Below are positions 1 through 59,452 of a stretch of DNA of 64,000 nt, piece by piece. Position 1 is the stretch's first letter. Every line of letters begins with the position of its first letter. The notes below the pieces were generated by a model. It did no database searches. It had not been told where the DNA came from and was given only the letters and a program-made list of their open reading frames with translations. The position numbers were made by a program, and so were the translations under genes. The DNA is from Octopus sinensis (lineage: Eukaryota), in contig NC_043006.1 of NCBI RefSeq assembly GCF_006345805.1, forward strand, positions 73,470,001 to 73,534,000, read 5' to 3'.

Positions 1-310
1 ATGTGTATAAGTCGTGAGTCTGTGGTTTACGTGTGTGTATTTGTGTGGGAATGTTTAGGTTAGGGGGTTTACTTTATAGGTTTGTTATAGAGTTTAGCAA
101 AGGGAGATTTTATCGTTATATGTTTTTAGAGTTTTGTTTTATCATGGTTTTTTTTTTTTTTTTAGGGAATTCGTGGTAATTAGTCTATATTTTCGATATG
201 GATTATATATAGGTTATATATGGATTATATACTTATATTTTTTCATTTATACTTTAATTATTTAAAAGTATTATTTTTATTTTAAAATTTTGATTTTTTA
301 GATTGGAAGT

Positions 311-353
311 CCACCTGAAGATTGTCGATCAAGACAAGAAACGATTGTAGTGG
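311..353 (+). ncRNA. Minimal type I hammerhead ribozyme (PLE pLTR), copy 1
   Basis: CCAC-CUGAAGA-UUGUC(GAUCAA)GACAA-GAAA-C(GAUU)G-UA-GUGG. Stem I CCAC/GUGG, 5-bp stem II, vestigial helix III, predicted cleavage after GUA (349). Confidence 0.88.
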
Positions 354-584
354 CGGTTTCTTTGACTATTTATTAAATTTTATGTATTGATTAAGTCTTT
401 CCTTGTTTGTTTTGCAAAATAGTGGTTTTGTCTCAAATAATATTTTATAATATTTTACTATAAAATTGGATTTAATCCTAAATCTGATTTTTTTTCCTGT
501 AAATTTGGATATATCCCTAATATTTATATTTATATAATATTGATAATTTTGTATATTGAGTGTAATACCTCAATTTCGCAAATT

Positions 585-3079
585 ATGGATTTTACAGGTA
601 AGATAGAACCGCTGTTTTGGGATTCATCTTTGAAAGATATTCCTATTCCTTCTAGAAAGGAATTTATCTTGAAACTTGTTAATAATGTTAAAGATTTTAT
701 TTCTAGAATTAAATGGAAAGCTTTTTACTATAATTTTTATTTATTTAATGATATTGATAGTAGGAATGATAATTATACCTCTAAATTTAAATCTAGAAAG
801 GAACCTCCATTAATAAAGAATTACAATTACTTGAAGATAGTATATGGAAGGTGGTAAAAAATATGAATTCCATAAATACCCAAATAGAAATAATGAATAT
901 TTAGGAATTTAGCAATTAAAATTAAAGATATGAGAAATATGGATAGTATTATAGTACAATCTGATAAAACAAGGAACTTATATAAATTAGATGTTAAATT
1001 ATATGATAAACTTTTAGGGAAAGAAATAATTAAAAAATATAAAATTGTTCCAGATGATATTCTTTATAATATTAATAAGGCCTCTAAAGTAGTAATGTTA
1101 AAATATGAGTTGGATAATAAAACTGAACCTTATGTACCTCTGCACCCCAGAATTACTCTTAAAGACCATAAAGATAATTTTTATTCAGACCCTAAAGTTA
1201 GATTAATTTGCCCATGTAAATCGGACCTAGGTAAATTAAGTAAATTTATTTTAGATAAATATATTGATAAGTTAAATAAACTTAATTATTTAAAATTATG
1301 GTTTAGTAATAATAATACATTGAAATGGTTTAATAATATTAAAGATAAAAATCGTTATAAATTATTCAAATAGATATAGATAATTATTATTCTCTATTAA
1401 TGAAATTGTGTTTAATAAAGCGCTTATTTTCGCAATGAATAAAGTGGGCATGTCACGGGAAGAAGTTAATGTAATTAAATTGGCTAGGAAATCGCTAATT
1501 AAATATAAAAATAAATTATGGGCTAGGAATGATACTAGAGATTGTTTTGATATACCTATGGGAGCACCAGATTCTGCACAGGCTACTGATTTAGTAGGTA
1601 TTTTTCTTTTATCTGAACTCCAATTAGAAAATCTTAAGATAGAGGGTGGTTTATATAGAGACGATCTTCTACTAGTTACAAAGAATTGTACTAATAGGAA
1701 TCTAGAAGTATATAAGAAAAAACTATATAGTTTCTTTAAAAGATATGGTTTACGTATTACTATATATAAGGAGAATTATAATGTTAATTATTTAGATGTT
1801 AATTTTAATCTTATTACAGTTAAAACACAACCATATCATAAACTTAATGAGAACCTTAGATATATAAATGTTAATAGTAATCACCCATTTTCTATTAAAA
1901 AATCGTTGATTAATAATATAAGTAAACGTATTTCATTACTCTCTTATGATATAGAGATTTTTAATAAACATGCTAATTATTATAATGAGGCCCTTAGAGG
2001 GGCAGGTTATAATAAGAATATTAAATTTTATAATATTAGCGATAATGATTTAAATGATAATTTTCGAGATACTTCTAATAATAATTATAATTTTGTTACG
2101 TTAGTGGTAAAAAAATAGATATTATAAAAAAAAATAATAAAAATGATAAAAATATAAATAAGAATAATAATATAATAATAAATATAATAATAATAATATA
2201 AATAAGAATAATATAATAAAAATAAATTTAATAATTATTATAATAATTATATTGATAAATTTAATAATATTAATAATTCCTTAAATGCTGTACATAGATA
2301 TAATTCTGATAATAATTTTAATAAAATAAAGAATTATAAATATATTTATAATAATGATAATAATAATAAGGTTAATAAGAATAAAATTTGGTTAATAGTT
2401 CCTTATGGAGATCAAGTTAAAACGAATATTATTAAAGAGATTTTAGATGTTATAGAGATAATCGTAAATATCGAAACATTTTCTCTTTTAATAATTTTGG
2501 AGTTGGTTACTCTACCACTAATAATGTTGGTAACATTATTTCTTCATTTAATAAATATAAACTGAATAATTTTTATAAAAAGAAATTATTTGATAATAAT
2601 ATTAATAATGATAAGACTTATATTAATTGTACATGTAGAGATAAATCTAATTGTATATTAAATAATAATTGTGATATTAACGATGTAGTGTATAAATGTA
2701 TAGTTACATTACATGATAATAACTTTAAGAATAATAATACAATAAAGCGGTTTATATAGGTTCTACTTCCTCAAAAATAAAACTAAGAATTGCACAACAT
2801 ATGAATTCTTTTAAAAATAAAAACTTAATCAACTCAACCGGACTTAGTAAGTATATTTGGAGTCTTAAATCACTAAATATTAATTATAGTTTAATATGGG
2901 AAATAATTTGTAAAACTAAATCATATAATATAGGAGCTAATTGTTGTTATTTATGCTCTAATGAGTTTAAAGAAATTTTATTTTATAAGTATGATAATTT
3001 ACTTAATACTGGGGAGGAGCGAAAAATAAAATGTAGACACAAGTTACTTTACTTATATAATAAGTTTCATGATAAATAG
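585..3079 (+). CDS. Penelope-like (Naiad) RT + GIY-YIG endonuclease, copy 1, split by several frameshifts
   Basis: N-terminal SLKDIPIP...RIKWKAF and SDKTRNLY; RT motifs DIDNYY, FDIPMGAPDSAQ and GLYRDD; thumb YINVNSNHP; linker CTC...CILNNNC; GIY-YIG VVY...VYIGST; C-terminal CYLC..E...LLN...E....CRH. ORF-track pieces at 540, 930, 1408 and 2801. Confidence 0.88.
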
Positions 3080-4183
3080 CAATAATAGTTCCCTTTTAGG
3101 TTATTTTAGTTTAAATTAGTTTAGATGTTATATTTTTGGTTATGTTGTCTAGGATTTAATTATAGTTAGTCTTTATTGATATTTCTTTGTTTATTAGTTC
3201 ATTTTTAATGTATATTAATTTAGCAGTTTATGGTACGTTAAACTTTAATAATTTATATTAGATTTTTTTATTTTTTTTTATTTTATTTTTTTATTTTATT
3301 TATTTTATTTTATTATGTATTTTATTTTGCATTTGTTATATGTATTTTGAGGATATATTTATATGTTTTGGGGGTTTTTTTAGTGGTGTTTTTATTGAGT
3401 TTTGTATGTATGTGTGAATGTTTAAGATCCCTTTGTTTTTTGTTTTTATTTGTAGGTTGAATTGACAGATTTTATTTGGGTATTGTCTTTTATAATAAAG
3501 TACACACCCATAACAATTATAAGTGCCCACTTCATTCGTTGTACTTGGGTTTGCATGTGAGCCTCAGCATATGCACCTAACGGCCACTCCAGCCCCACAT
3601 GGATAAATTAACACATACATCCCCAACCACCATCACAATGAAACCCACACCCATACAATGACAAAAACTCCCCCATACCCTATTTACACCTACATAGTAA
3701 TCCCAATATATTCTTCCATACATGGACGCAAGTGCGTGAAGCACATGAACATAATTAGTACGTACAACCCCTAATACACACTAATATATACGTATCAAGC
3801 TCGACCTCCACAGTGATAAGTTTACACACAATCACACCCAGATGGGTGAATTGCACAACCAGTGAATGCTCACACATACGGGCGCGATTACATGTTGCAT
3901 ATATCGAGCCAAAATTGTATGCATATGTACATGTGAGGGGTACACGTAAATGAAGTGAGCGTGTACCCCCTGTATTTATCCGTGCGTGAATATACACATG
4001 GAGACTACCACACAGGTACTAAGTGTTTTAGAAATGGGAGCCCCATCACTACACTTAATGTATACTCTCACCCATCCGCACGGATGTGTAAGTGTATCTC
4101 CGGTGTATATGTTGAGGCTTATATGTAGAGTTGTTGAAGGGAACGTCGTTGAAATTGTGAATGGGTAGAGTTGGGAATTGTAA

Positions 4184-5770
4184 CCGTGTGGTGGACTAGT
4201 GTTGTTTGGAATTGTGAATGGATTAGGGTGGTAATGAGGTAGGCATTGAGTATGGGTTACTGTAAGTTGTTTGTTAGAGTTGCTAGGGTGAGCTAAAGCT
4301 CATAAATGTATATAATTGATTTTTCATGATAGTTTTTAAAGAATCCATTCATAATAAATATAAATTTTTTTAAGTAGCGTTGGTTTGCTACGTGGAAATA
4401 GTTTTAGTTCCATTTATTATATTTCTCCATTCATACTATGAATGACGTTTACTTTCTATGGCGCGTATTCTTTTTTTACATTAGTTATTTCCATGGTAAC
4501 GTAATTTTGTTTGGTTTTTTAACGGCTAAAAATCTAATTTCACTTCATAATTTGTAACTGAATTGTAAGTATGTATTTGATTTATCCTTATGTCATAATG
4601 TTATTTTGATATTCTGGTTAATTACGATGTATTTATTGTTGTTTTCATAAGAGTGTTTATGTATATGAGATTGGTTGTGAGTTTTTAATTGTATAATTAA
4701 TTTATTTATCTGTATGAGTGTGGGTGTAAATATTGTTGTATATATCGAGTTTTAGTGAGTATGTATATGCGTATATGTGAGGGAGCATATGTATCTGTTG
4801 TGTATGTGTGTTTGTGTGTGTGTGTTGTTGTGTGAATGTGTATTTGGGTTTGTTATTTAGGATTTGGGATGTATGTGTTAATTTGTCTGTGTGGGGAGGG
4901 AGTGGTTTTTGGTGTATATTGAGGTTTATAAGTTAGTATAGGTTTGTGTATAAGTTTTGGTCTGTGGTTTACGTGTGGGTTTTGTGTGTGAATGTTTAGG
5001 TTAGGGGGATTGCTATATAAGTTTGTTATAGGGTTTAGCAAAGGGAGATTTTATCGTTATATGCTTTTATGAGTTTTGGTTTATCATGGTTTTTTAGGTA
5101 ATTCGTGGTATTTTGTCTATTTTGGTGTTGGTTATTTTTTTACATTGTTTCATTCATAATTTTTGAGTGGTGTTCGTTTTGCCACGTGAATAACCGGGTG
5201 GTGGACTAGCGTTGCTTGGAATGTGAATGGAATAGTGTAGTAGTGAGGTAGGTATAGAGAATGGGATTGGGTTACTGCAAGTTGTTTGTTAGAGATGCTA
5301 AGGTGAGTTAAAGCTCATAAATGTATATAATGTTTTTTGTGGGTGTGTAAGTATTGTTGTATATGTCGAGTTTAGTGAGTATGTATAGGCGTATATGTGA
5401 GGGAGTATATGTATCTTTTGTGTGTGAGTGTTTTGCGTGTGAGTGTGTGTTTTGTGTGTGAATGTGTATATGGGTTTGTTATTTAGGTTTTGGGATGTAT
5501 GTGTTAATTTGTCTGTGTGGGGAGGGAGTGGGTTTTGGTGTGTATATTGAGGTTTATAAGTTAGTATAGGTATGTGTATAAGTCGTGAGTCTGTGGTTTA
5601 CGTGTGTGTATTTGTGTGGGAATGTTTAGGTTAGGGGGGTTACTTTATAGGTTTGTTATAGAGTTTAGCAAAGGGAGATTTTATCGTTATATGTTTTTAA
5701 GAGTTTTGTTTTATCATGGTTTTTTTTTTTTTTTTTTTTTTTAGGGAATTCGTGGTAATTAGTCTATATT
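4184..5770 (+). repeat. Diverged internal direct duplication in the PLE non-coding region
   Basis: About 4184-4317 resembles 5193-5331, and about 4718-5120 resembles 5338-5770. The same arrangement recurs in unit 2. Confidence 0.8.
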
Positions 5771-5888
5771 TTCGATATGGATTATATAGGTTATATATGG
5801 ATTATATACTTTATTTTTTCATTTATACTTTAATTATTTAAAAGTATTATTTTTATATTTTAAAATTTTGATTTTTTAGATTGGAAGT

Positions 5889-5931
5889 CCACCTGAAGAT
5901 TGTCGATCAAGACAAGAAACGATTGTAGTGG
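5889..5931 (+). ncRNA. Minimal type I hammerhead ribozyme, copy 2
   Basis: Identical to 311-353. Confidence 0.88.
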
Positions 5932-6166
5932 CGGTTTCTTTGACTATTTATTAAATTTTATGTATTGATTAAGTCTTTCCTTGTTTGTTTTGCAAAATAG
6001 TGGTTTTGTCTCAAATAATATTTTATAATATTTTACTATAAAATTGGATTTAATCCTAAATCTGATTTTTTTTTCCCTGTAAATTTGGATATATTCCCTA
6101 ATATTTATTATTTATATAATATTGATAATTTTGTATATTGAGTGTAATACCTCAATTTCGCAAATT

Positions 6167-8677
6167 ATGGATTTTACAGGTAAGATAGAACCGCTGTTTT
6201 GGGATTCATCTTTGAAAGATATTCCTATTCCTTCTAGAAAGGAATTTATCTTGAAACTTGTTAATAATGTTAAAGATTTTATTTCTAGAATTAAATGGAA
6301 AGCTTTTTACTATAATTTTTATTTTTTAATGATATTGATAGTAGGAATGATAATTATACCTCTAAATTTAAATCTAGAAGGAACCTCCATTTAATAAAGA
6401 ATTACAATTACTTGAAGATAGTATATGGAAGGTGGTAAAAAATATTGAATTCCATAAATACCCAAATAGAAATAATGAATATTTAAGGAATTTAGCAATT
6501 AAAATTAAAGATATGAGAAATATGGATAGTATTATAGTACAATCTGATAAAACAAGGAACTTATATAAATTAGATGTTAAATTATATGATAAACTTTAGG
6601 GGAAAGAAATAATTAAAAAATATAAAATTGTTCCAGATGATATTCTTTATAATATTAATAAGGCCTCTAAAGTAGTAATGTTAAAATATGAGTTGGATAA
6701 TAAAACTGAACCTTATGTACCTCTGCACCCCAGAATTACTCTTAAAGACCATAAAGATAATTTTTATTCAGACCCTAAAGTTAGATTAATTTGCCCATGT
6801 AAATCGGACCTAGGTAAATTAAGTAAATTTATTTTAGATAAATATATTGATAAGTTAAATAAACTTAATTATTTAAAATTATGGTTAGTAATAATAATAC
6901 ATTGAAATGGTTTAATAATATTAAAGATAAAAATCGTTATAAATTTATTCAAATAGATATAGATAATTATTATTCTTCTATTAATGAAATTGTGTTTAAT
7001 AAAGCGCTTATTTTCGCAATGAATAAAGTGGGCATGTCACGGGAAGAAGTTAATGTAATTAAATTGGCTAGGAAATCGCTAATTAAATATAAAAATAAAT
7101 TATGGGCTAGGAATGATACTAGAGATTGTTTTGATATACCTATGGGAGCACCAGATTCTGCACAGGCTACTGATTTAGTAGGTATTTTTCTTTTATCTGA
7201 ACTCCAATTAGAAAATCTTAAGATAGAGGGTGGTTTATATAGAGACGATCTTCTACTAGTTACAAAGAATTGTACTAATAGGAATCTAGAAGTATATAAG
7301 AAAAAACTATATAGTTTCTTTAAAAGATATGGTTTACGTATTACTATATATAAGGAGAATTATAATGTTAATTATTTAGATGTTAATTTTAATCTTATTA
7401 CAGGTAAAACACAACCATATCATAAACTTAATGAGAACCTTAGATATATAAATGTTAATAGTAATCACCCATTTTCTATTAAAAAATCGTTGATTAATAA
7501 TATAAGTAAACGTATTTCATTACTCTCTTATGATATAGAGATTTTTAATAAACATGCTAATTATTATAATGAGGCCCTTAGAGGGGCAGGTTATAATAAG
7601 AATATTAAATTTTATAATATTAGCGATAATGATTTAAATGATAATTTTCGAGATACTTCTAATAATAATTATAATTTTGTTACGTTTAGTGGTAAAAATA
7701 ATAGATATTATAAAAAAAAATAATAAAAATGATAAAAATATAAATAAGAATAATAATAATAATAAATATAATAATAATAATATAAATAAGAATAATATAA
7801 ATAAAAATAAATTTAATAATTATTATAATAATTATATTGATAAATTTAATAATATTAATAATTCCTTAAATGCTGTACATAGATATACTGATAATAATTT
7901 TAATAAAATAAAGAATTATAAATATATTTATAATAACGATAATAATAATAAGGTTAATAAGAATAAAATTTGGTTAATAGTTCCTTATGGAGATCAAGTT
8001 AAAACGAATATTATTAAAGAGATTTTAGATGTTATAGAACTATTTATTAGAGATAATCGTAAATATCGAAACATTTTCTCTTTTAATAATTTTGGAGTTG
8101 GTTACTCTACCACTAATAATGTTGGTAACATTATTTCTTCATTTAATAAATATAAACTGAATAATTTTTATAAAAAGAAATTATTTGATAATAATATAAT
8201 AATGATAAGACTTATATTAATTGTACATGTAGAGATAAATCTAATTGTATATTAAATAATAATTGTGATATTAACGAGATGTAGTGTATAAATGTATAGT
8301 TACATTACATGATAATAACTTTAAGAATAATAATACAATAAAGCGGTTTATATAGGTTCTACTTCCTCAAAAATAAACTAAGAATTGCACAACATATGAA
8401 TTCTTTTAAAAATAAAAACTTAATCAACTCAACCGGACTTAGTAAGTATATTTGGAGTCTTAAATCACTAAATATAATTATATAGTTTAATATGGGAAAT
8501 AATTTGTAAAACTAAATCATATAATATAGGAGCTAATTGTTGTTATTTATGCTCTAATGAGTTTTAAAGAAATTTTATTTATAAGTATGATAATTTACTT
8601 AATACTGGGGAGGAGCGAAAAATAAAATGTAGACACAAGTTACTTACTTATATAATAAGTTTCATGATAATAAATAG
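6167..8677 (+). CDS. Penelope-like (Naiad) RT + GIY-YIG endonuclease, copy 2, split by frameshifts at mostly different sites
   Basis: Near-identical to copy 1. ORF pieces at 6122, 6678, 6881 (FIQIDIDNYYSSI, GLYRDD) and 7638 (IWLIVPYGDQVKTNI, GYSTTNN). Confidence 0.88.
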
Positions 8678-11493
8678 CAATAATAGTTCCCTTTTAGGTT
8701 ATTTTAGTTTAAATTAGTTTAGATGTTATATTTTGGTTATGTTGTCTAGGATTTAATTATAGTTAGTCTTTATTGATATTTCTTTGTTTAATTAGTTCAT
8801 TTTTAATGTATATTAATTTAGCAGTTTATGGTACGTTAAAACTTTAATAATTTATATTAGATTTTTTATTTTTTTTATTTTATTTTTATTTTTATTTATT
8901 TTATTTTATTATGTATTTTTATTTGCATTTGTTATATGTATTTTGAGGATAGGATATATTTATATGTTTTGGGTGTTTTTAGTGGTGTTTTTATTGAGTT
9001 TTGTATGTATGTGTGAATGTTTAAGATCCCTTTGTTTTTTGTTTTTTATTTGTAGGTTGAATTGACAGATTTTATTTGGGTATTGTCTTTTATAATAAAG
9101 TACACACCCATAACAATTATAAGTGCCCACTTCATTCGTTGTACTTGGGTTTGCATGTGAGCCTCAGTATATGCACCTAACGGCCACTCCAGCCCCACAT
9201 GGATAAATTAACACATACATCCCCAACCACCATCACAAATGAAACCCACACCCATACAATGACAAAACTCCCCCATACCCTATTTACACCTACATAGTAA
9301 TCCCAATATATTCTTCCATACATGGACGCAAGTGCGTGAAGCACATGAACATAATTAGTACGTACAACCCCTAATACACACTAATATATACGTATCAAGC
9401 TCGACCTCCACAGTGATAAGTTTACACACATCACACCCAGATGGGTGAATTGCACAACCAGTGAATGCTCACACATACGGGCGCGATTACATTGTTGCAT
9501 ATATCGAGCCAAAATTGTATGCATATGTACATGTGAGGGGTACACGTAAATGAAGTGAGCGTGTACCCCTGTATTTATACCCGTGCGTGAATAACACATG
9601 GAGACTACACACAGGTACTAATGTTTTAGAAATGGGAGCCCCATCACTACACTTAATGTATACTCTCACCCATCCGCACGGATGTGTAAGTGTATCCGGT
9701 GTATATGTTGAGGCTTATATGTAGAGTTGTTGAAGGGAACGTCGTTGAAAATGTGAATGGGTAGAGTTGGGAATTGTAACCGTGTGGTGGACTAGTGTTG
9801 TTTGGAATTGTGAATGGATTAGGGTGGTAATGAGGTAGGCATTGAGTATGGGTTACTGTAAGTTGTTTGTTAGAGTTGCTAGGGTGAGCTAAAGCTCATA
9901 AATGTATATAATTGATTTTTCATGATAGTTTTTAAAGAATCCATTCATAATAAATATAAATTTTTTTAAGTAGCGTTGGTTTGCTACGTGGAAATAGTTT
10001 TTAGTTCCATTTATTATATTTCTCCATTCATACTATGAATGACGTTTACTTTCTATGGCGCGTATTCTTTTTTTACATTAGTTATTTCCATGGTAACGTA
10101 ATTTTGTTTGGTTTTTTAACGGCTAAAAATCTAATTTCACTTCATAATTTGTAACTGAATTGTAAGTATGTATTTGATTTATCCTTATGTCATAATGTTA
10201 TTTTTGATATTCTGGTTAATTACGATGTATTTATTTGTGTTTCATAAGAGTGTTTATGTATATGAGATTGTTGTGAGTTTTTAATTGTATAATTAATTTA
10301 TTTATCTGTATGAGTGTGGGTGTAAATATTGTTGTATATATCGAGTTTTAGTGAGTATGTATATGCGTATATGTGAGGGAGCATATGTATCTGTTGTGTA
10401 TGTGTGTTTTGTGTGTGTGTGTGTTTGTGTGTGAATGTGTATTTGGGTTTGTTATTTAGGATTTGGGATGTATGTGTTAATTTGTCTGTGTGGGGAGGGA
10501 GTGGTTTTTGGTGTATATTGAGGTTTATAAGTTAGTATAGGTTTGTGTATAAGTTTTGGGTCTGTGGTTTACGTGTGGGTTTTTTGTGTGTGAATGTTTA
10601 GGTTAGGGGGATTGCTATATAAGTTTGTTATAGGGTTTAGCAAAGGGAGATTTTATCGTTATATGCTTTTATGAGTATTGGTTTATCATGGTTTTTTTAG
10701 GTAATTCGTGGTATTTTGTCTATTTTAGGTGTTGCTTATTTTTTTACATTGTTTCATTCATAATTTTTGAGTGGTGTTCGTTTTGCCACGTGAATAACCG
10801 GGTGGTGGACTAGCGTTGCTTGGAATGTGAATGGAATAGTGTAGTAGTGAGGTAGGTATAGAGAATGGGATTGGGTTACTGCAAGTTGTTTGTTAGAGAT
10901 GCTAAGGTGAGTTAAAGCTCATAAATGTATATAATGTTTTTTGTGGGTGTGTAAGTATTGTTGTATATGTCGAGTTTTAGTGAGTATGTATAGGCGTATA
11001 TGTGAGGGAGTATATGTATCTTTTGTGTGTGAGTGTTTTGCGTGTGAGTGTGTGTTTGTGTGTGAATGTGTATATGGGGTTGTTATTTAGGTTTTGGGAT
11101 GTATGTGTTAATTTGTCTGTGTGGGGAGGAGGAGTGGGTTTTTGGTGTATATTGAGGTTTATAAGTTAGTATTAGTATAGGTATGTGTATAAGTCGTGAG
11201 TCTGTGGTTACGTGTGTGTATTTGTGTGGGATGTTTTAGGTTAGGGGGTTTACTTTATAGGTTTGTTATAGAGTTAGCAAAGGGAGATTTTATCGTTATA
11301 TGTTTTTAAGAGTTTTGTTTTATCATGTTTTTTTTTTTTTTTTTTTAGGGAATTCGTGGTAATTAGTCTATATTTTCGATATGGATTATATATAGGTTAT
11401 ATATGGATTATATACTTATATTTTTTATTTATACTTTAATTATTTAAAAGTATTATTTTTATATTTTAAAATTTTGATTTTTAGATTGGAAGT

Positions 11494-11536
11494 CCACCTG
11501 AAGATTGTCGATCAAGACAAGAAACGATTGTAGTGG
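11494..11536 (+). ncRNA. Minimal type I hammerhead ribozyme, copy 3 (terminal pLTR)
   Basis: Identical to 311-353; lies about 185 nt before the array end. Confidence 0.88.
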
Positions 11537-11894
11537 CGGTTTCTTTGACTATTTATTAAATTTATGTATTGATTAAGTCTTTCCTTGTTTGTTTTGCAAA
11601 ATAGTGGTTTTGTCTCAAATAATATTTTATAATATTTTACTATAAAATTGGATTTAATCCTAAATCTGATTTTTTTTCCCTGTAAATTTGGATATATTCC
11701 CTAATATTTATTATTATATATATATATATATATCTATATATATATATAATAAATATATATATATATAATATATATATATTATATATATATATATGTATGT
11801 ATATATGGTATGTAGATCTAGTCATGAATCTTGTCGATACATTCATATTGGGACACGCGTGGGTTACTTTATACTTTCGATACTTCTGTAAAAT

Positions 11895-13667: not shown

Positions 13668-14069
13668 AATGATGACAAAATAACGCCCTTAGTAGGATAG
13701 GTAGAGAGGAGAATAAGGGGAAAGAAAATGAAAATGAAATAAATTAAAACAGGATAAGATACAATAATATGGAGGGAAACGAAATAAAATAAAAGTAAAA
13801 CAACATAATATGCAATAAAGATAGTAGATTACAAGGCGGTTTTATTTTCTCTAATAGGTTGATGGATATAATTTTTTTTTCAAAGGTGACGGATATACAA
13901 GATTTAAAGGTTCGTGGATATAAGGTTTGAAAGTTTCAAAATACTTTGAAGTTTTAAAAGTTTTAAAATGTTTAGAAGTTTTCAAAGTTTTAGGACGTAT
14001 AAAAGGTTTGTGGATATGGAAGGAAGTATAGCAGTGGATAGGTAGATAGATGGTTAGAGACATAGGTAA

Positions 14070-39049: not shown

Positions 39050-42000
39050 GGGAAAACTATGCCCGGAGATAAAACTATCAACAAAAATATACAGACGAAT
39101 ACAGATCGGCTAGCCTTAAGAAGCTGCGCTACGAACAATGTTTACGTGCAGAGAATCCTAAACTGACTGATCCGTCTCTTAATGTAAGAGTCGAAGCTCG
39201 TCATGCTTCAATGTCAACAAAACAACCTACAATCCGCGATGGTCGGCGAGCGGACTACAAAAGACCACGTACCCGAAAATTGGACCAAAGTCTGATTGAA
39301 AAATCAGCTACTGGATCAAATCTTCCCGACACACAGGAGCTGGACGTACCCCGCAACTGGAATATTCCAACAGATGGCCATCCATGCTCGTCACCAAACA
39401 CTCAAAAGAAAAAGAAGGAAAAATGGACTAGGGAAGATAATAAAGAAGTTCTTGCGGCCTTCTACCATGCCATATATTTCCCCACAGATAAATCGAACAC
39501 TATACAAACCTACATAAACTGGAGACAGAAACACCCTGAAGTAAGACCCCTACATAGACAGTAACAAACTTGCCAACGTCAGAAGAAACATTATAAAAAA
39601 AAATTACTGACTGAAGTAGAGATTGATCAAGTTAGACAAGCAGTAACGGATAGAATGAACGAAGCTGCAGCTAAAGAAGATAATACAGAGGAAATAATTA
39701 TAGACCAGCCCAGAGCTGATAAAAACGAAGTAAGGATTGAAAGAGTTAGTATAAGTGATATACTCCCTGAACCAAATATAAACACTAAGACAGATGAACA
39801 TCAAATAGATGAAGAAAGTCACACAAATATTGATCCGACAGAACTACATGAGCTAAAAAGTCAAATCATGATTGAATGACTGAAAATTAAAGAAACCAGT
39901 ATGGATGAACGTGATACACTCCCTAAAATCCGCAACTCTAACCAAAACATGAAAATAATTGGTAAAACCCGGCTTGCACTTAAGGATATAATTTCAGCTT
40001 ATGATGTTGATATCACAGATCTCAACCACCTATACTATGCATCCGCGAAAATCTCAACGATCCTATGTGGTGAAAAGATTAGAAAACGGCAACATTTCCA
40101 CAAAAAGCCTTCTTGGCAAGAGCGTTTGCAACAACAAATTAAACTATTTAGATCTGACATTGAATATTTGAAAAACCTTAGGGTTCATAAGACTACCAAA
40201 CCTACAAAAACCCCAAAACTAATGAAAAAATATAATATGAAAACTATACTTGATATTGATGCCACCATAAAAACCATCAAGCAAAAGGTATCTGCTAAAG
40301 CTGCCCGCATAGCGAGGTATGAAAAGCGTGTTAGATTCTTCAGGGAAAACAACATGTTCAAAAATAACCCCAAAAATGTTTACAGGAAGATAGGAAAAAC
40401 ACCAGTTACTGTAAAGTCTGTACCATCAAAAGAAGTGCAGGGATTTTGGAATAAAATTTGGGCAGAAGAAAAAACACACAGCGAAAAGGCCCCCTGGATT
40501 GATAGAATATCTAAAGAACTGGACTCCTTAGAAGAGCAAAAGTGGGAGGGTGTCAAGGTAGAAGACATAAGATCTGCTCTCAGGAGGTCAAGCAAATGGA
40601 AGTCTCCAGGAAAGGATAAAATCCCTAACTTCTGGTTGAATGCCTTCCCAGAGAGCCATGAACTGCTAACAGAATTGTACAATGATGTTTTGCAACACCC
40701 TAGTAGGATGCCTCCTTGGCTAGTTAATGGGTTAACATTCCTGCTTCCAAAACGTGAAGAAACAAATGAACCAAAAAACTATAGACCCATAACCTGTATA
40801 AAACACTAACATCTGTCCTGACGGAACATACCTTTAGTTTTTTGACAGACAGCAGCATATTCCCTAATGAACAGAAATGATGTAAACGTGGATCCTACGG
40901 TTGTAAAGATCAACTACTCATCAATAAGATGATCTTAGAAGATTGTCACAAACGACACAAAAACTTATCAATAGCCTGGATAGACTATAAAAAGGCTTTT
41001 GATAGCCTACCACATAGCTGGATTAAGAAATGCCTAGAAATGTATAAAATAGCACCTGCTCTGCGAAACTTTTTGTCTGTAAGTATGAGATCATGGAGAA
41101 CCACACTAACTTGAACAGTGACAATGCATCTCTAAATGCTGGTGATGTAAAAATCTCATGTGGCATTTTCCAGGGTGACTCACTATCACCACTCCTCTTC
41201 TGTTTAGCCTTAATACCTCTCTCAAAACTGCTCATGACGCGCAGTACGGATATAAAATGTTTGATAAAAATATAATCATCTCATTTACATGGATGATTTA
41301 AGCTCTTTGCAAAAAATGACCAACAACTCAAGGGCTTACTAGCGATTGTCAAACAATTCAGTGATGACATCAGAATGCAATTTGGCCTCGATAAGTGTGC
41401 AAAAGCTACCTTTATCAAAGAAAAAAAATGACAGAACCATCTAACGTTAACCTTGACCAGCAGAATGTCATAAAATAATTAGACCCCGGAGAACTACAAG
41501 TATCTAGGGGTAATTGAAGGAGACGGAATAAGGCATTCAGAGATGAAGGAAAGGATCAGGAGAGAATGTTATCGCAGAGTAAGAGCAATACTCAAGACAG
41601 AGCTGAAACAGGATCGAAGCGATCAATGCATTAGCCATACCAGTCGTGACTTACAGTTACAATATCGTTAACTGGTCAATTACTGAAATATGTAACCTTG
41701 ACAGAAAAATACGAAAACTGTTGACAATGCATAGAATGCACCACCCTAAGGTAGATACAGAACGACTTTATCTGCCAAGAAAAGAGGGAGGCCGTGGACT
41801 TTTACAACTGGCAATAAGAATGAAGATTGCTACAATTGGCCTAGACACCTACCTGAAAAACTCTGAGGACTGGATGTTAAAACTTGTCTCAAAACATGAA
41901 AACAAGAAAGCATCATACTCAGTAACAAAACAGGCAAAGGAATATCTAAGTGAATTCTGAATACAACAAATTTCGGAATTAGAGATAGACATATAAGAAA

Positions 42001-43027
42001 CAGGCACAGTAAAAGCTAAGCGCATGAAAACCCGTGCTAAATCTGCGGCCTTAGATATTCTGAATGATAAATGGCAAGAAAAACCTCTCTATGGCAAATA
42101 CCCAAAGAGAGCGAATAATGCAGATGTTGACAAAGCCCTGACCCATCAATGGCTAAAGGCCTCTGGCTTAAAATTTGAAACAGACGGGTTTATCATAGCA
42201 GCTCAAGATCAATGCCTACCAACAAGAAACTACCTGGCCAACATATTAAAGATCAGCAGCAGTCCAACGTGTCGTGTATGCCGACAACAAAATGAAACCA
42301 TAGATCATGTGGTCTCCAAGTGCAGTCTTCTAGCGCCTACAGAGTATCTCAACAGGCACGATAGAGCTGCACATTATATTCACTGGGTAATCTGCAAAAA
42401 CCTGGATTTGCCCCATGAAAAAAACTGGTGGGAATACAAACCACCCCCAGTGCTTGAAAATGACCATATCTCACTCCTCTGGAACTTCACCATTCAAACT
42501 GACAGAAAGATAGATGCAAATAGGCCAGACATCATATTGAAAGACTTCAAACAAGGAACATGCCTCCTCATTGATATGACTGTCCCAATCGATATAAACG
42601 TATCTGTCAAGACCTACCAAAAACTGAGCAAATATAAAAATCTTGAAATAGAAATCAGCAAAATGCGGAACCTGAAGACTAAAACAATATCTGTTGTCAT
42701 AGGTGCCCTGGGAATGATAGCAAAAGGGGCTGATAACTACCTAACTCAGATACCAGGAAACCCCAAAATGGCAGAAATTCAAAAGATAGTGCTCATGAGA
42801 ACTGCTCATATCCTACGCAAAATACTTTCTATGTAATCTCAAGGTTTAAAACAAACATTTTCTTTTCTTTTTTTTTTTTTAGACATCCACCAGTACAACA
42901 CAAAAAACAACCAAATATATGGCACACTAGGCATAACAACAACGTGAACTTCCAACCTGTTGTCTCTTGAGGTCTCCGGGTGAGACTTGGAGCCAACTTG
43001 TACAAATATAAAGCAAAAGTCAAACAT
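39050..43027 (+). mobile_element. Near-full-length R4/Dong-clade non-LTR retrotransposon flanked by (TAA)n
   Basis: Single long degenerate ORF with RT, CCHC and RLE motifs; (TAA)n on both sides, the known Dong target. Confidence 0.88.
39211..42836 (+). pseudogene. Disrupted RT-RLE polyprotein of the R4/Dong element
   Basis: [54 protein letters not shown] (about 41287), CRVC..ETIDHVVSKC, RHD, RPDI, KLSKY; several stops and frameshifts. Confidence 0.88.
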
Positions 43028-48825: not shown

Positions 48826-49208
48826 AATATATATATATTGTCTCAGTTAAATTAGTCTCAACGTATTTAATCCAGCGGTAAAAGATAAATCTAAGAATAA
48901 CAAAAATGCCGTGAATATTTTAATTATGTCGAAATTACTATTGACAACGCCAGACATAATTCTGTTTTATTATGTCCTTAATGAATTTATTCGTGACGGT
49001 GTAAGAAATTAAGCAGTTCAGCGCTAATTCTAAGAACCTAATTTTACAACGAGACTAATGTGTCTGTTAAACAGGAATACATCTTTACTAATTGTCCGTG
49101 TTTTATTGGTATTTTACTAATTGATGTTGTAGTCAAAGTTGTACCATTATGCATGTAGATTTCTGCTACTGTTTTTCGTCAAGGTAGAAGTGAGGGAGAG
49201 AGAGAAAG

Positions 49209-54830
<5,622 letters not shown>

Positions 54831-55109
54831 CGAGAGAGAGAGAGAGAAATGAGAGACTTCTGATGACTGGTGTGCACTTTGAAACTAGTAGAGGGATTGA
54901 TCTTCATTAAAAACTGCCGAAGTATGTACAGGGTCGAATTCAACAAGATTAACTATCAGTTAATGAAATATATGAAAAATGACTGTATACATAGTCACAC
55001 CAAAGCACACACACATAATTATATATATATATATTAATATATATATATATTAATATATATATATGCATAATACATATGCGTGTGTTTAAAAATGCATTTA
55101 TGCGCATGC

Positions 55110-56704: not shown

Positions 56705-57022
56705 TACACATATATATTCATGCATATTTATATATTTATATATAGATATGTATATATGGATATATATGGATGTATGAACGTACATATTCATCTATGTATT
56801 CCCAAGGCTTGATTTTATTTCTCGATATAATTTTTCTTGAAAGAACGAAGCCAATGCGGAACCTATTATAATATTGGATTTTGCTGAAGGGATAATTAAC
56901 CACTTCATTTCATTCAATATTTAACTCGGTTATCACTCTCGCTTCGAAGAACATATTCTACCGCCAAAGCTCTTACACTGAGTACACATACAACAACAAC
57001 AACAACAATAATAATGATAGTT

Positions 57023-57058
<36 letters not shown>

Positions 57059-58348
57059 TATCAGACTTTTCTGTAGTCTCAATACTAGTGTTGTTATTGT
57101 TTTGTGTGTATGTGTGTGTATATATATACATAAGTATATATATATATACATACATACACACATATACATACATATATGTGTTGTACATATCTATATACAT
57201 ATATATATTGTACTAAGTGATGATCATATTTTGTATATCTATATAAATACACACAAAACAATAACAACACTAGTATGAAAAGTATATAAATGTCTGATAG
57301 TTATTTTTATTATTATTATTATTGTTATTATCATTATTGTTGTTGTTGTTGTTATCATCATCATAAATGTTAAATCTCCATCGTTATTTCTTCTTGGAAG
57401 CAGAAGACAAGTTGTCTCTGTGTTGTTCAAGTTGTTGAAAGTAATGAAGCAATAAGGAAAAAAAAAAGAAAAAAGAAAACGTGTTTGACTGGAAAATATA
57501 TTTATGGAAAAATGGTGTCTTTGTGATCGATATTCTAATCAGCCATTCATTGAAAGTGAGTTGGAAGTTAGTCAATTCCCAAATTCCTGTTTTCTTTTTA
57601 AGAGTGAAGAATAAATATTTCCTATGTTACTTAGGCTTCCTGACTTTCTACGAATGAGTTTAATGATGCACTTAAAATATCAATTGTCTTCTTATTAGAC
57701 TTTCATTCCAGTTTACCGCTGTTAACGGAAAATACTTATTCAGTTCTATTATGTAAAGAAGACTTAAGAGAGGAGCTGCGTCTACAAGTTGCATGATTGA
57801 ATTTTGATTTTCAGTTGAACAGTAAGGTGTAATCAGCAAATAAAACAGACTATAGTTGTTAGCAGGAGCATATCCAGACGTCTGAATATACCTCTGTAAA
57901 CAACATTGGTTGTTTATTGAAAGCTTTAACAAGACTAGTCAGGTTTCCTTTTCTTCTACCTCTCCTATTTTCATTCTCTTCGTGTGTCATCATTATAGGC
58001 ACCTGCAATCACAGACCTTCATGACTAAATATGAAGATTTAAGATATTTAATGAGAATTTTCCTGTCTTCTGCCAGTCTTGTTACAGGTTTACTCTGCTT
58101 GTCTCCTATCCTAAGCTTACCCTTGAAACACAGAGCTTAATTTCTTAGGCTGGAAGAATGCTTCACGTGACTTTAGAAAATGTTAACGCAACGGATAGGC
58201 CAAAACTTGTCCGAATTCTGTATGTCGAAGCTACATGACCATATTTTGCTATTTGAACCTAACCGAAGTTAGCATTTCGCCCAGCGTACTAACGATTCTG
58301 CCAGTTCGCTGCCTTCATAATAATAATGATAATAATAATAATAATAAT

Positions 58349-59218
58349 GGCTGTGTGGTGAGTAGCTTGTTTACAAACCACATGGTTCCGGGTTCAGTCC
58401 CACAGCGTGGCACCTTGGGCAAATGTCTTCTAGTATAGCCTCGGGCCGACCAAAGCCTTGTGAATGGATTTGGTGGACGGAAACTGAAAGAAGCCCGCCG
58501 TATATATGTATATATATATATATGCGTTTGTGTGTCTGTGTTTGTCCCCCTAGCATTGCTTGACAACCGATGCTGGTGTGTTTATGTCCCCGTTACTTAG
58601 CGGTTCGGCAAAAGAGACCAATAGAATAAGTATTGGGCTTACAAAAAAACAAGTCCCGGGGTCGAGTTGCTCGATTAAAGGCGGTGCTCCAGCATGGCCG
58701 CAGTCAAATGACTGAAACAAGTAAAAGAGTAAAATAATAATAATAATAATGAAAATAATAATGAAAATAATAATAATAATAATGGCTGTGTGGTGAGTAG
58801 CTTGTTTACAAACCACATGGTTCCGGGTTCAGTCCCACAGCGTGGCACCTTGGGCAAATGTCTTCTAGTATAGCCTCGGGCCGACCAAAGCCTTGTGAAT
58901 GGATTTGGTGGACGGAAACTGAAAGAAGCCCGCCGTATATATGTATATATATATATATGCGTTTGTGTGTCTGTGTTTGTCCCCCTAGCATTGCTTGACA
59001 ACCGATGCTGGTGTGTTTATGTCCCCGTTACTTAGCGGTTCGGCAAAAGAGACCAATAGAATAAGTATTGGGCTTACAAAAAAACAAGTCCCGGGGTCGA
59101 GTTGCTCGATTAAAGGCGGTGCTCCAGCATGGCCGCAGTCAAATGACTGAAACAAGTAAAAGAGTAAAATAATAATAATAATAATGAAAATAATAATGAA
59201 AATAATAATAATAATAAT
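58349..59218 (+). repeat. Tandem duplication (period 435 bp) of a SINE A plus (ATA)n spacer
   Basis: 58349-58783 and 58784-59218 read as identical, including the spacer variant aatgaaaataataatgaaaat. Confidence 0.9.
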
Positions 59219-59452
59219 GTTTTCTGAGGTGAGGCATTAGTCGATACCTGTGATCCCAGTATTAGACTAATACTTGTTTTACATGACTATATTTATTTTA
59301 TCGACCTCAAAACGATAGAAGCAAAATGGACCTCTGCAGTATTTGAACTGAGAACGTAGAGGCAGACTAAATGCTGTTAAATATTTTGATCAGCGTGCTA
59401 ACGATTCTGCTATTTCCGCGAATAATACTTACTACTACTGCTACTTCTGAAA

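Follow-up and report, generated by a model that had tools for sequence, protein, structure and literature searches.

How does a Penelope-like element (PLE) come to lie in a genome as more than one complete copy of itself, joined head to tail? The question is raised by the left end of a 64,000-nt stretch of Octopus sinensis DNA (hereafter the window, G000:C10:73,470,001-73,534,000, where G000 is the assembly of the 2.72-Gb source genome and C numbers denote its contigs), in which near-identical 5.6-kb units, each carrying a hammerhead ribozyme (HHR) motif, follow one another. Where more-than-unit copies come from, why introns are retained and what the HHR is used for have been open questions for PLEs since 2003–2014. 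We find that the window array is one arm of a single young, two-armed insertion of a Hydra-clade PLE. At a probability of roughly 0.55, we favour the reading that a unit-length RNA, likely excised by HHRs acting as a pair and then either circularised or kept with its ends together, was copied for more than one lap by two reverse transcriptases (RTs). The idea of a circular template and a cDNA of more than one lap was put forward for PLEs themselves by Cervera and de la Pena in 2014 (PMC4209133, in the portion drawn on here). The clade, the tandem and inverted layout, the two start sites and the circle model were thus known before; what is added here is genomic evidence.

The window array is one arm of a two-armed insertion

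Self-BLAST aligns window positions 1-6138 with 5572-11743 at 97.5% identity, and the tandem periods, measured between HHR cores, are 5,578 and 5,605 bp. The tandem array of near-identical units proposed in an earlier, sequence-only reading of this DNA is therefore real, including its terminal partial unit, which runs to about 11727 and abuts (TA)n. The two full units differ by 69 indels and 17 substitutions, and the GC content is 27% for the unit and 21% for the open reading frame (ORF).

The array extends beyond the window, and is part of a 21.2-kb tail-out, head-to-head inverted insertion (G000:C10:73,460,541-73,481,727). Below, an arm is one side of such an insertion, and positions given as +n are nucleotides past the predicted HHR cut. 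The plus arm, which is the right arm and the window array, reaches beyond the window as far as the inversion point at G000:C10:73,469,022; it has 2.24 units and three HHRs, and ends at +191 with a (TA)n flank. The minus arm holds 1.5 units and two HHRs, and ends at +104 after the last cut, likewise with a (TA)n flank. The features of the array are as follows.

1-349, plus strand: end of an upstream partial unit, with the 3' part of the intron, the acceptor AG at 300-301 and the 5' half of the first HHR
311-353, plus strand: HHR motif 1, minimal type I, with a 4-bp stem I, a 5-bp stem II and a self-complementary helix III; predicted cut after 349
350-5927, plus strand: full unit 1, measuring 5,578 bp from cut to cut
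395-642, plus strand: predicted folded RNA domain (+46 to +293), z = -4.4, enclosing both arm-end sites (folded on the unit-2 copy, 5880-6300)
437-453, plus strand: arm-end site A (about +100), predicted AU hairpin and putative RT start site
525-545, plus strand: arm-end site B (about +190), predicted AU hairpin and putative RT start site
585-3079, plus strand: single ORF of unit 1, frameshifted, with the RT (DKT, YRDD), an Asn-rich insert, a linker and, at the C terminus, a GIY-YIG-type endonuclease
2628-2654, plus strand: CxCx5C linker in the unit-1 ORF
about 2690-3050, plus strand: GIY-YIG-type endonuclease in the unit-1 ORF
3500-4300, plus strand: non-coding, CA-rich then GT-rich, with predicted long RNA stems (fold of 3910-4209)
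4542-4564, plus strand: exon 1, 23 nt, from the initiator-like TCA(+1)CTTC; putative transcription start
4565-5879, plus strand: GT..AG intron of 1,315 nt, retained in long copies and spliced out of short ones
4718-5095 and 5339-5725, plus strand: direct repeat inside the intron
5889-5931, plus strand: HHR motif 2; predicted cut after 5927
5928-11532, plus strand: full unit 2, 5,605 bp, with a frameshifted ORF at 6167-8677, exon 1 at 10139 and the intron at 10162-11484
11494-11536, plus strand: HHR motif 3; predicted cut after 11532
11533-11727, plus strand: terminal tail, stopping at site B (+191) and joined to the (TA)n target

Both window ORFs, which start from ATGs at 585 and 6167, are frameshifted as assembled. 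Since contigs from public runs hold the base lacking at three of the breaks in unit 1 (809, 863 and 1361), the frameshifts are probably assembly errors, the supporting contigs not being tied to this particular locus.

The three HHRs, identified via a sequence pattern plus cofolding, are identical in sequence, with the core CTGAAGA at 315, 5893 and 11498. The distance from predicted cut to ATG is 235-239 nt, which bears out the earlier statement that an identical HHR lies some 235 nt before each ATG. Rfam at the gathering score matched no families. The 43-nt HHR is present in 1,607 exact copies in the assembly as compared to none for the reversed control, and is thus not a chance match. As judged by cofolding, two HHRs form an intermolecular (dimer) helix III, and the minimum free energy structure of the monomer differs from the active fold. 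The layout is the same as in the Hydra HHR table of PMC8557442, as far as that table was drawn on, and a divergent HHR copy at C4:78.08 Mb retains stem II with a different loop. The motif is classed as a canonical minimal type I HHR, for which self-cleavage is predicted.

The element belongs to the Hydra clade

The sequence-only reading had labelled the units as Naiad-type and had credited Naiads with a C-terminal GIY-YIG endonuclease. In the parts of the defining study used here (Craig et al. 2021, PMC8557442), the Naiad endonuclease is N-terminal and comes with DKA, CxC, IFD and CCHH motifs and no canonical HHR. Hydra-clade elements are described there as having an RT followed by a C-terminal GIY-YIG, DKT, an RWK-type motif, CxCx5C, CxxC and CxH, no CCHH and a canonical HHR. 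In our element, tblastn places the RT at 603-2028 and the linker plus endonuclease at 2595-3046, and in the natural ORF L104 the YRDD lies at 102 and the YIG at 472, so that the RT precedes the endonuclease. SDKT is present in the natural ORFs L016 and L105, and no CxC was found upstream of DKT in the L016 translation. Among the 150 best relatives the motif was seen in 49, as DKT in 39, DKS in 7, DKA in 2 and DKG in 1. KWKA stands where RWK is expected (K for R), and CTCRDKSNC (the CxCx5C linker), CYLC (CxxC) and CRH (CxH) align with seven homologues. CCHH was not found, a single cysteine lying between the strands equivalent to GIY and YIG. The alignment with homologues has no gap for an IFD insertion between RT motifs A and B, and the spacing, compared by eye with the published figure, is Hydra-like.

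The Naiad label is wrong, because the order of RT and endonuclease, the DKT and the canonical HHR all match the Hydra definition; on each of the four points compared (endonuclease position, DKA/CxC, CCHH and absence of the HHR) the element departs from Naiads. Membership of the retrozymes, which have non-coding units of 150-1000 nt, is excluded by the 5.6-kb coding unit. As judged by motifs, domain order, HHR and (TA)n target, the element is a Hydra-clade PLE.

The family is young and abundant: there are 797 candidates for the RT stretch genome-wide, and all 40 that were scored are 99-100% identical. No single intact full-length ORF was present among the fetched copies; overlapping natural ORFs of 519-612 aa span the protein. 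Pfam returned no informative family for three window ORFs, two natural ORFs or three homologues. The structure model of L104 is of low confidence (predicted local distance difference test score 60, predicted template modelling score 0.36); Foldseek with this model gave weak RT and RNA-dependent RNA polymerase folds and no GIY-YIG match, and was not used as evidence. The Asn-rich insert of about 110 codons (window 2040-2370) lies between the RT thumb and the linker, and in the homologue P0001 it is located elsewhere in the protein. Such an insert is reported for rotifer Penelope elements (PMC3846280, in part).

With the Hydra clade, including Hydra-1_Obim, the element shares domain order, motifs, the minimal HHR and the (TA)n target, as well as tandem and inverted insertions in which one end bears a tail; the (TA)n target and the tandem and inverted insertions are also a likeness to Naiads (all from the portion of PMC8557442 drawn on). 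The listed Hydra consensus sequences are 1.1-3.0 kb long, whereas the units here measure 5.6 kb and those of a sister subfamily 6.3-8.0 kb; across copies the range is 4.6-8.0 kb, against a clade described as 'generally <3 kb'. This is a descriptive rather than a diagnostic trait, and the published consensus lengths may be truncated. Hydra-1_Obim is 2,507 bp long and its HHR sequence, compared by eye, is different; the present element is therefore another family. Unlike the Hydra elements in the part of the list consulted, it has a 1.3-kb intron in the repeat, the Asn-rich insert and a tail of about 85 nt, as compared to 30-40 nt.

Short copies point to spliced, uncut RNA and to two priming events

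Many insertions are 400-bp palindromes in which the 23-nt exon at 4542-4564 is joined to 5880 and the 1,315-nt GT..AG intron is gone. Genome-wide, the spliced junction has 1,405 matches and the unspliced acceptor 1,151. Since the spliced copies stop at exon 1, and only 21 spliced arms extend 6 nt upstream of it, we infer that transcription starts at the initiator-like sequence at 4542. The spliced joint 4564>5880 is present in one contig of run X16, one of four runs guessed to be RNA and examined as contigs only; the joint also exists as DNA. As judged by the genomic copies, the template of the short copies is a sense, spliced RNA, uncut at the HHR.

Arm ends were surveyed in a chromosome-1 (C1) sample of 70 loci, taken from the first 100 of the 1,607 HHR matches. 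The arms stop near +100 or near +190, and never at the HHR cut. At all 43 loci with both ends called, one +100 arm is paired with one +190 arm; one nested locus was set aside, and the remaining loci had fewer than two ends called. The two arms of a pair also agree in splicing in 31 of 31 cases (21 spliced/spliced and 10 unspliced/unspliced, with 8 pairs unclassified), and rare alternative splice forms occupy both arms at L043 and at L047. Because of this pairing, the concordant splicing, the shared splice forms and the existence of non-overlapping or asymmetric arms, each insertion appears to result from two priming events on one RNA. The expectation of the sequence-only reading that RNA ends produced by HHR cleavage define the insertions is not supported, given arm ends at about +100 and +190 and 1,405 spliced arms that cross an uncut HHR.

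Two other sources of the short palindromes were considered. A master miniature inverted-repeat transposable element was rejected, as the 18 junctions shown mostly differ, and pure fold-back is excluded by the non-overlapping or asymmetric arms (L065, L034, L057 and L089). Separately, in the spliced palindromes L031 and L054 the arms are kept apart by 0.6 and 1.8 kb of DNA foreign to the family, which may be a later insertion or captured sequence.

Long arms behave as though copied from a template without an upstream end

A marker placed just upstream of the ATG was matched 38 times. Four small arrays account for 15 of these matches, arms that stop in the 5' untranslated region for two, and crossings of a second HHR for 21. 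All 21 crossings are unspliced. The same holds for the sister subfamily, where 9 of 9 crossings in the first 30 of 85 matches are unspliced (eight flagged, one aligned through the intron end). The 21 marker crossings correspond to 19 arms, which with one arm from the C1 sample make up a set of 20 long arms, a few arms having been missed by the pattern. For comparison we assembled a first-lap set of 36 arms, that is 40 minus two misclassified spliced arms (L043) and two with duplicated flanks.

None of the 20 long arms ends within 15 nt of the transcription start site, and nine run past it; the shortest reaches 60 nt past the cut. Under the expectation for capped RNA of one-unit donors, taken from the 7 of 29 arms that are spliced in this subfamily, 0 of 20 spliced has p of about 0.004. 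Since all are unspliced and none ends at the start site, the long arms do not come from capped mRNA of one-unit donors, and their template, as far as the genomic copies reveal it, behaves as though it had no upstream end. The mean length is 2.17 kb for the first lap (n=36) and 1.96 kb past the second HHR (n=20), with a Kolmogorov-Smirnov p of 0.94. Random fall-off predicts 1.2 two-unit arms and two were seen; because the second lap matches the first in length and the number of two-unit arms is close to this expectation, the window array can be regarded as the expected tail of the length distribution. More-than-unit arms are found at 19 insertions. Both laps of the insertion at C5:4.77 Mb are missing a stretch of about 1 kb that takes in the start site and exon 1, as would fit a monomer excised from a donor whose upstream promoter is intact.

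Laps share rare alleles

Across 25 insertions, 41 rare alleles are common to all laps, and only one is lap-specific in both arms, in an error-prone tract; lap-specific alleles were testable at 13,776 sites. The segments of the window insertion have private alleles at 2472 and 5619 in common, and the private alleles of the window and of C25:28.7 Mb are absent from the other 23 insertions compared. This suggests that the laps are copies of one segment.

At C7:86.4 Mb, a 31-nt stretch shows four A>G changes in each of the three segments of the insertion, among them both laps of a single arm; two of these segments have a fifth such change. The cluster, the only A>G cluster found, corresponds to window 4021-4051, inside a predicted stem, and we interpret it as ADAR-like editing. 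The mark has four matches genome-wide, the fourth being an ORF-less copy at C13:15.28 Mb with all C7 alleles, which could be a daughter or else a sibling, both then descending from a parent that was not seen. With either origin, a mark expected to arise on one RNA sits in two tandem units. One arm of L091 (G000:C1:93.29 Mb) has a cluster of four G>A changes within 15 nt.

Short fragments are repeated and probably re-read

At fourteen loci a fragment of 240-450 nt is present in serial copies, about seven at most: four of the loci belong to this subfamily, and ten were found among the 22 examined in the sister subfamily. The upstream end of the fragment mostly lies at +12 to +50 and the downstream end at +293 to +338. 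There is usually one junction per insertion, and sometimes both arms have laps. The junctions lie at or outside the base of the predicted folded domain, and the fragment encloses both arm-end sites. A test of jumps against the fold gave a Spearman coefficient of -0.52 (p=0.08) and permutation p values of 0.11-0.20, with an outcome that varied with the folded window. As a possible source of the small laps, a circle formed by back-splicing of exon 2 (+248 to -47) was discarded with zero matches.

The DRT2 RT and telomerase repeat addition likewise involve repeated jumping back on one RNA to yield head-to-tail cDNA repeats (PMC12039810, in part). We claim no homology with either; unlike in those systems, the junctions here differ between insertions and the products integrate into (TA)n.

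A proposed model for multi-lap copying

The scheme that we favour would run as follows. RNA polymerase II would initiate at 4542, and a transcript through a whole unit would carry two HHRs, which could pair via their self-complementary helix III and release a cut-to-cut monomer. This monomer would have neither cap nor exon 1, and would retain a copy of the intron at its 3' end. It would then be ligated into a circle, or its ends would be held together. The endonuclease would cut (TA)n, and both DNA ends would prime, at about +100 and about +190; each RT would run back over the junction and continue around the unit, falling off at a random point (mean of about 2 kb), and the two cDNA ends would be joined head to head. 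Uncut transcripts with one HHR would yield the short, spliced, promoter-less palindromes.

Iterative reading, if it is what happens, would explain tandems, pseudo-long terminal repeats and intron retention in one step. The wider claim, that an autonomous PLE replicates via a 5.6-kb ribozyme-cut RNA read iteratively, as a circle or by end-to-end jumping, by a telomerase-related RT, that the same RT re-reads folded fragments of 240-450 nt, and that an A-to-I barcode has recorded it, we hold tentatively, at a little under even odds.

Several observations weigh against this scheme. The small laps show that lapping by the RT needs no HHR cleavage, because it occurred on uncut RNA: at C3:11.18 Mb one arm reached the spliced cap end and the other lapped three times, and the small-lap loci C1:189.8 and C2:66.8 cross an intact, uncut HHR. 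As judged by these insertions, the RT can re-read RNA without cleavage; the 1,405 spliced arms also cross an uncut HHR. Comparison of unspliced with spliced arms (overlapping loci partly deduplicated) revealed no sequence scars at the cut. For an Anolis element, cleavage was dispensable in vitro and no RNA-seq ends were reported at the cut (Frangieh et al. 2024, PMC11167929, in the parts used here). At C25:28.7 Mb, 514 nt are missing from both plus-arm laps and mostly kept in the minus arm, which suits end-to-end jumping on a broken RNA, or a DNA duplication, better than a plain circle. Ninety-one sites are discordant between laps, and were read as noise; the shared alleles are also expected from a very young multi-unit donor or from duplication at the DNA level. 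The A>G mark is also present at C13:15.28 Mb, so that it may have come down from a parent copy that was not seen. The assembly is error-rich and contains tandem duplications that include flank (C19, L053, L056 and L061). Finally, the circular RNA and the cut RNA end are inferred and not observed; one X16 contig has a loose end at exactly 5927, a weak hint as contigs cannot show RNA ends, strand or circles. The proposal of the sequence-only reading that multimers could arise by copying a monomer for more than one lap gains indirect support from lap lengths, unspliced crossings and shared alleles.

Alternatives to a ribozyme-cut template

The best of the competing explanations, which we nevertheless consider unlikely, is a linear read-through in which uncut, unspliced transcripts from donors with at least three tandem units are copied once and the HHR is a bystander, a scenario taken from Frangieh et al. 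2024. It accords with the seamless junctions across the HHR and with cleavage being dispensable in vitro (PMC11167929, in part), and the 21 spliced arms that run upstream of the start site indicate that read-through RNA or transfer exists. Against it, the two-unit arms number just three and no arm was seen to contain three full units, although long tandems may be collapsed in, or missing from, the assembly; nor do the other 23 insertions compared have the private alleles of the window or those of C25:28.7. Under read-through, moreover, arrays could only shrink with each generation, an RNA edit should mark one lap, yet both are marked, and the promoter-less deletion lies in both laps of C5:4.77.

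Less probable still is a homology-guided strand transfer resembling that of the retroviral R region, in which the template is a linear RNA with terminal redundancy and the RT, having started close to its 5' end, moves over to the 3' copy, with neither cleavage nor circle. Seamless junctions, shared alleles and the A>G mark are all accounted for, the RT demonstrably jumps back on its template and the short spliced arms resemble strong-stop products. Some second crossings should, however, enter spliced exon 1, and 0 of 20 do so (p of about 0.004, given 7/29 spliced).

We give a similarly small chance to the second full unit being a duplication of a 1.24-unit arm, made either in the DNA, by unequal crossing-over between 1.5-kb direct repeats, or by the assembly. 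The units do differ mainly by error-like indels, flank-including duplications are present in the assembly and C25:28.7 fits a deletion followed by a duplication. Against this, the number of two-unit arms matches random fall-off (1.2 expected, two seen), the minus arm also exceeds one unit on the same haplotype, the junctions have no (TA)n flank and as many as 19 insertions have arms longer than one unit.

Self-priming on an antisense template, invoked to explain inverted structures and intron retention (Arkhipova et al. 2013, PMC3846280, in part), is very improbable, and for the short class largely contradicted: some inversion points do lie at short palindromes and some insertions are near-perfect mirrors (L216), but GT..AG splicing and the A>G changes are on the sense strand, and the non-overlapping or asymmetric arms of L065, L034, L057 and L089 are incompatible with fold-back.

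Relation to known systems

A dimer-dependent type I HHR and head-to-tail units are likewise part of the Cervera and de la Pena proposal and of metazoan retrozymes (PMC4209133; PMC7229834; bioRxiv 10.64898/2026.07.22.740005; each in part). Circles were shown for small retrozymes, whereas the present element is autonomous, 5.6 kb long and known from genomic copies.

For priming, the closest likeness is PAc, a Poseidon element of Anolis. As described in the portion of PMC11167929 drawn on, PAc in vitro likewise has two internal RT starts, which lie downstream of the HHR and delimit the tail; each strand of the target is cut and extended, and uncut RNA serves as template. PAc belongs to another clade. 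In the present element the two start sites, predicted AU hairpins, are separated by about 85 nt, and there are laps, spliced copies and a strict pairing of one end with the other, none of which is reported for PAc in that portion.

For transcription, it is Penelope of Drosophila virilis, which likewise has an internal initiator promoter, a short exon 1 and a 5' intron ending beside the HHR, and whose long genomic copies also retain the intron (Schostak et al. 2008, PMC2377424, in part). Its intron measures 75 nt as compared to 1,315 nt here, and spliced genomic copies are abundant here.

In a 2026 octopus repeat annotation (PMC13282606), Penelope appears in counts and ages only, in the sections consulted. 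No genomic record of an autonomous PLE with laps, with shared edits or with short copies that are spliced was found in the literature covered, which did not extend to the majority of subscription journals, to the papers of Arkhipova and Evgen'ev from 2003 and 2005 or to the supplementary files of the 2026 retrozyme preprint. In a young, high-copy family such as this one, what capped, spliced mRNA gives rise to can be told apart from what stems from an uncapped, apparently endless template, and exact sites are available for direct tests: the start, the splice, the cut, the two priming sites and the jump-back zone. If the RT does re-read its template, a mobile element would be linked to telomerase-like repeat addition.

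Related copies and other features of the window

A divergent subfamily at C4:78.074-78.086 Mb (L229-L231), 88-90% identical to the window, has an HHR variant and two full units of 5,436 and 6,178 bp, the upstream one including about 970 nt without a match in the downstream one. In the sister subfamily, L234-L239 and L244-L245 (units of 7.9-8.0 kb) have two promoter-exon 1 blocks per unit and a longer intron. At C19:48.805-48.817 Mb, L053, L056 and L061, whole insertions plus flank are tandemly duplicated with periods of 6,354, 512, about 2,800 and 977 bp, either as an assembly artefact or as a local duplication.

Elsewhere in the window, a broken non-LTR retrotransposon at 39211-42836 (plus strand) has a zf-RVT match and a restriction-like endonuclease motif, and presumably resembles Dong/R4. 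A TA/TG-rich microsatellite field of 5.6 kb with a GC content of 11-17% occupies 49200-54850, and an imperfect 360-bp palindrome, 74% self-complementary, lies at 56995-57353. A common repeat is directly duplicated in tandem at 58319-58784 and 58754-59219, with a period of 435 bp and 99.8% identity, possibly as an assembly duplication.

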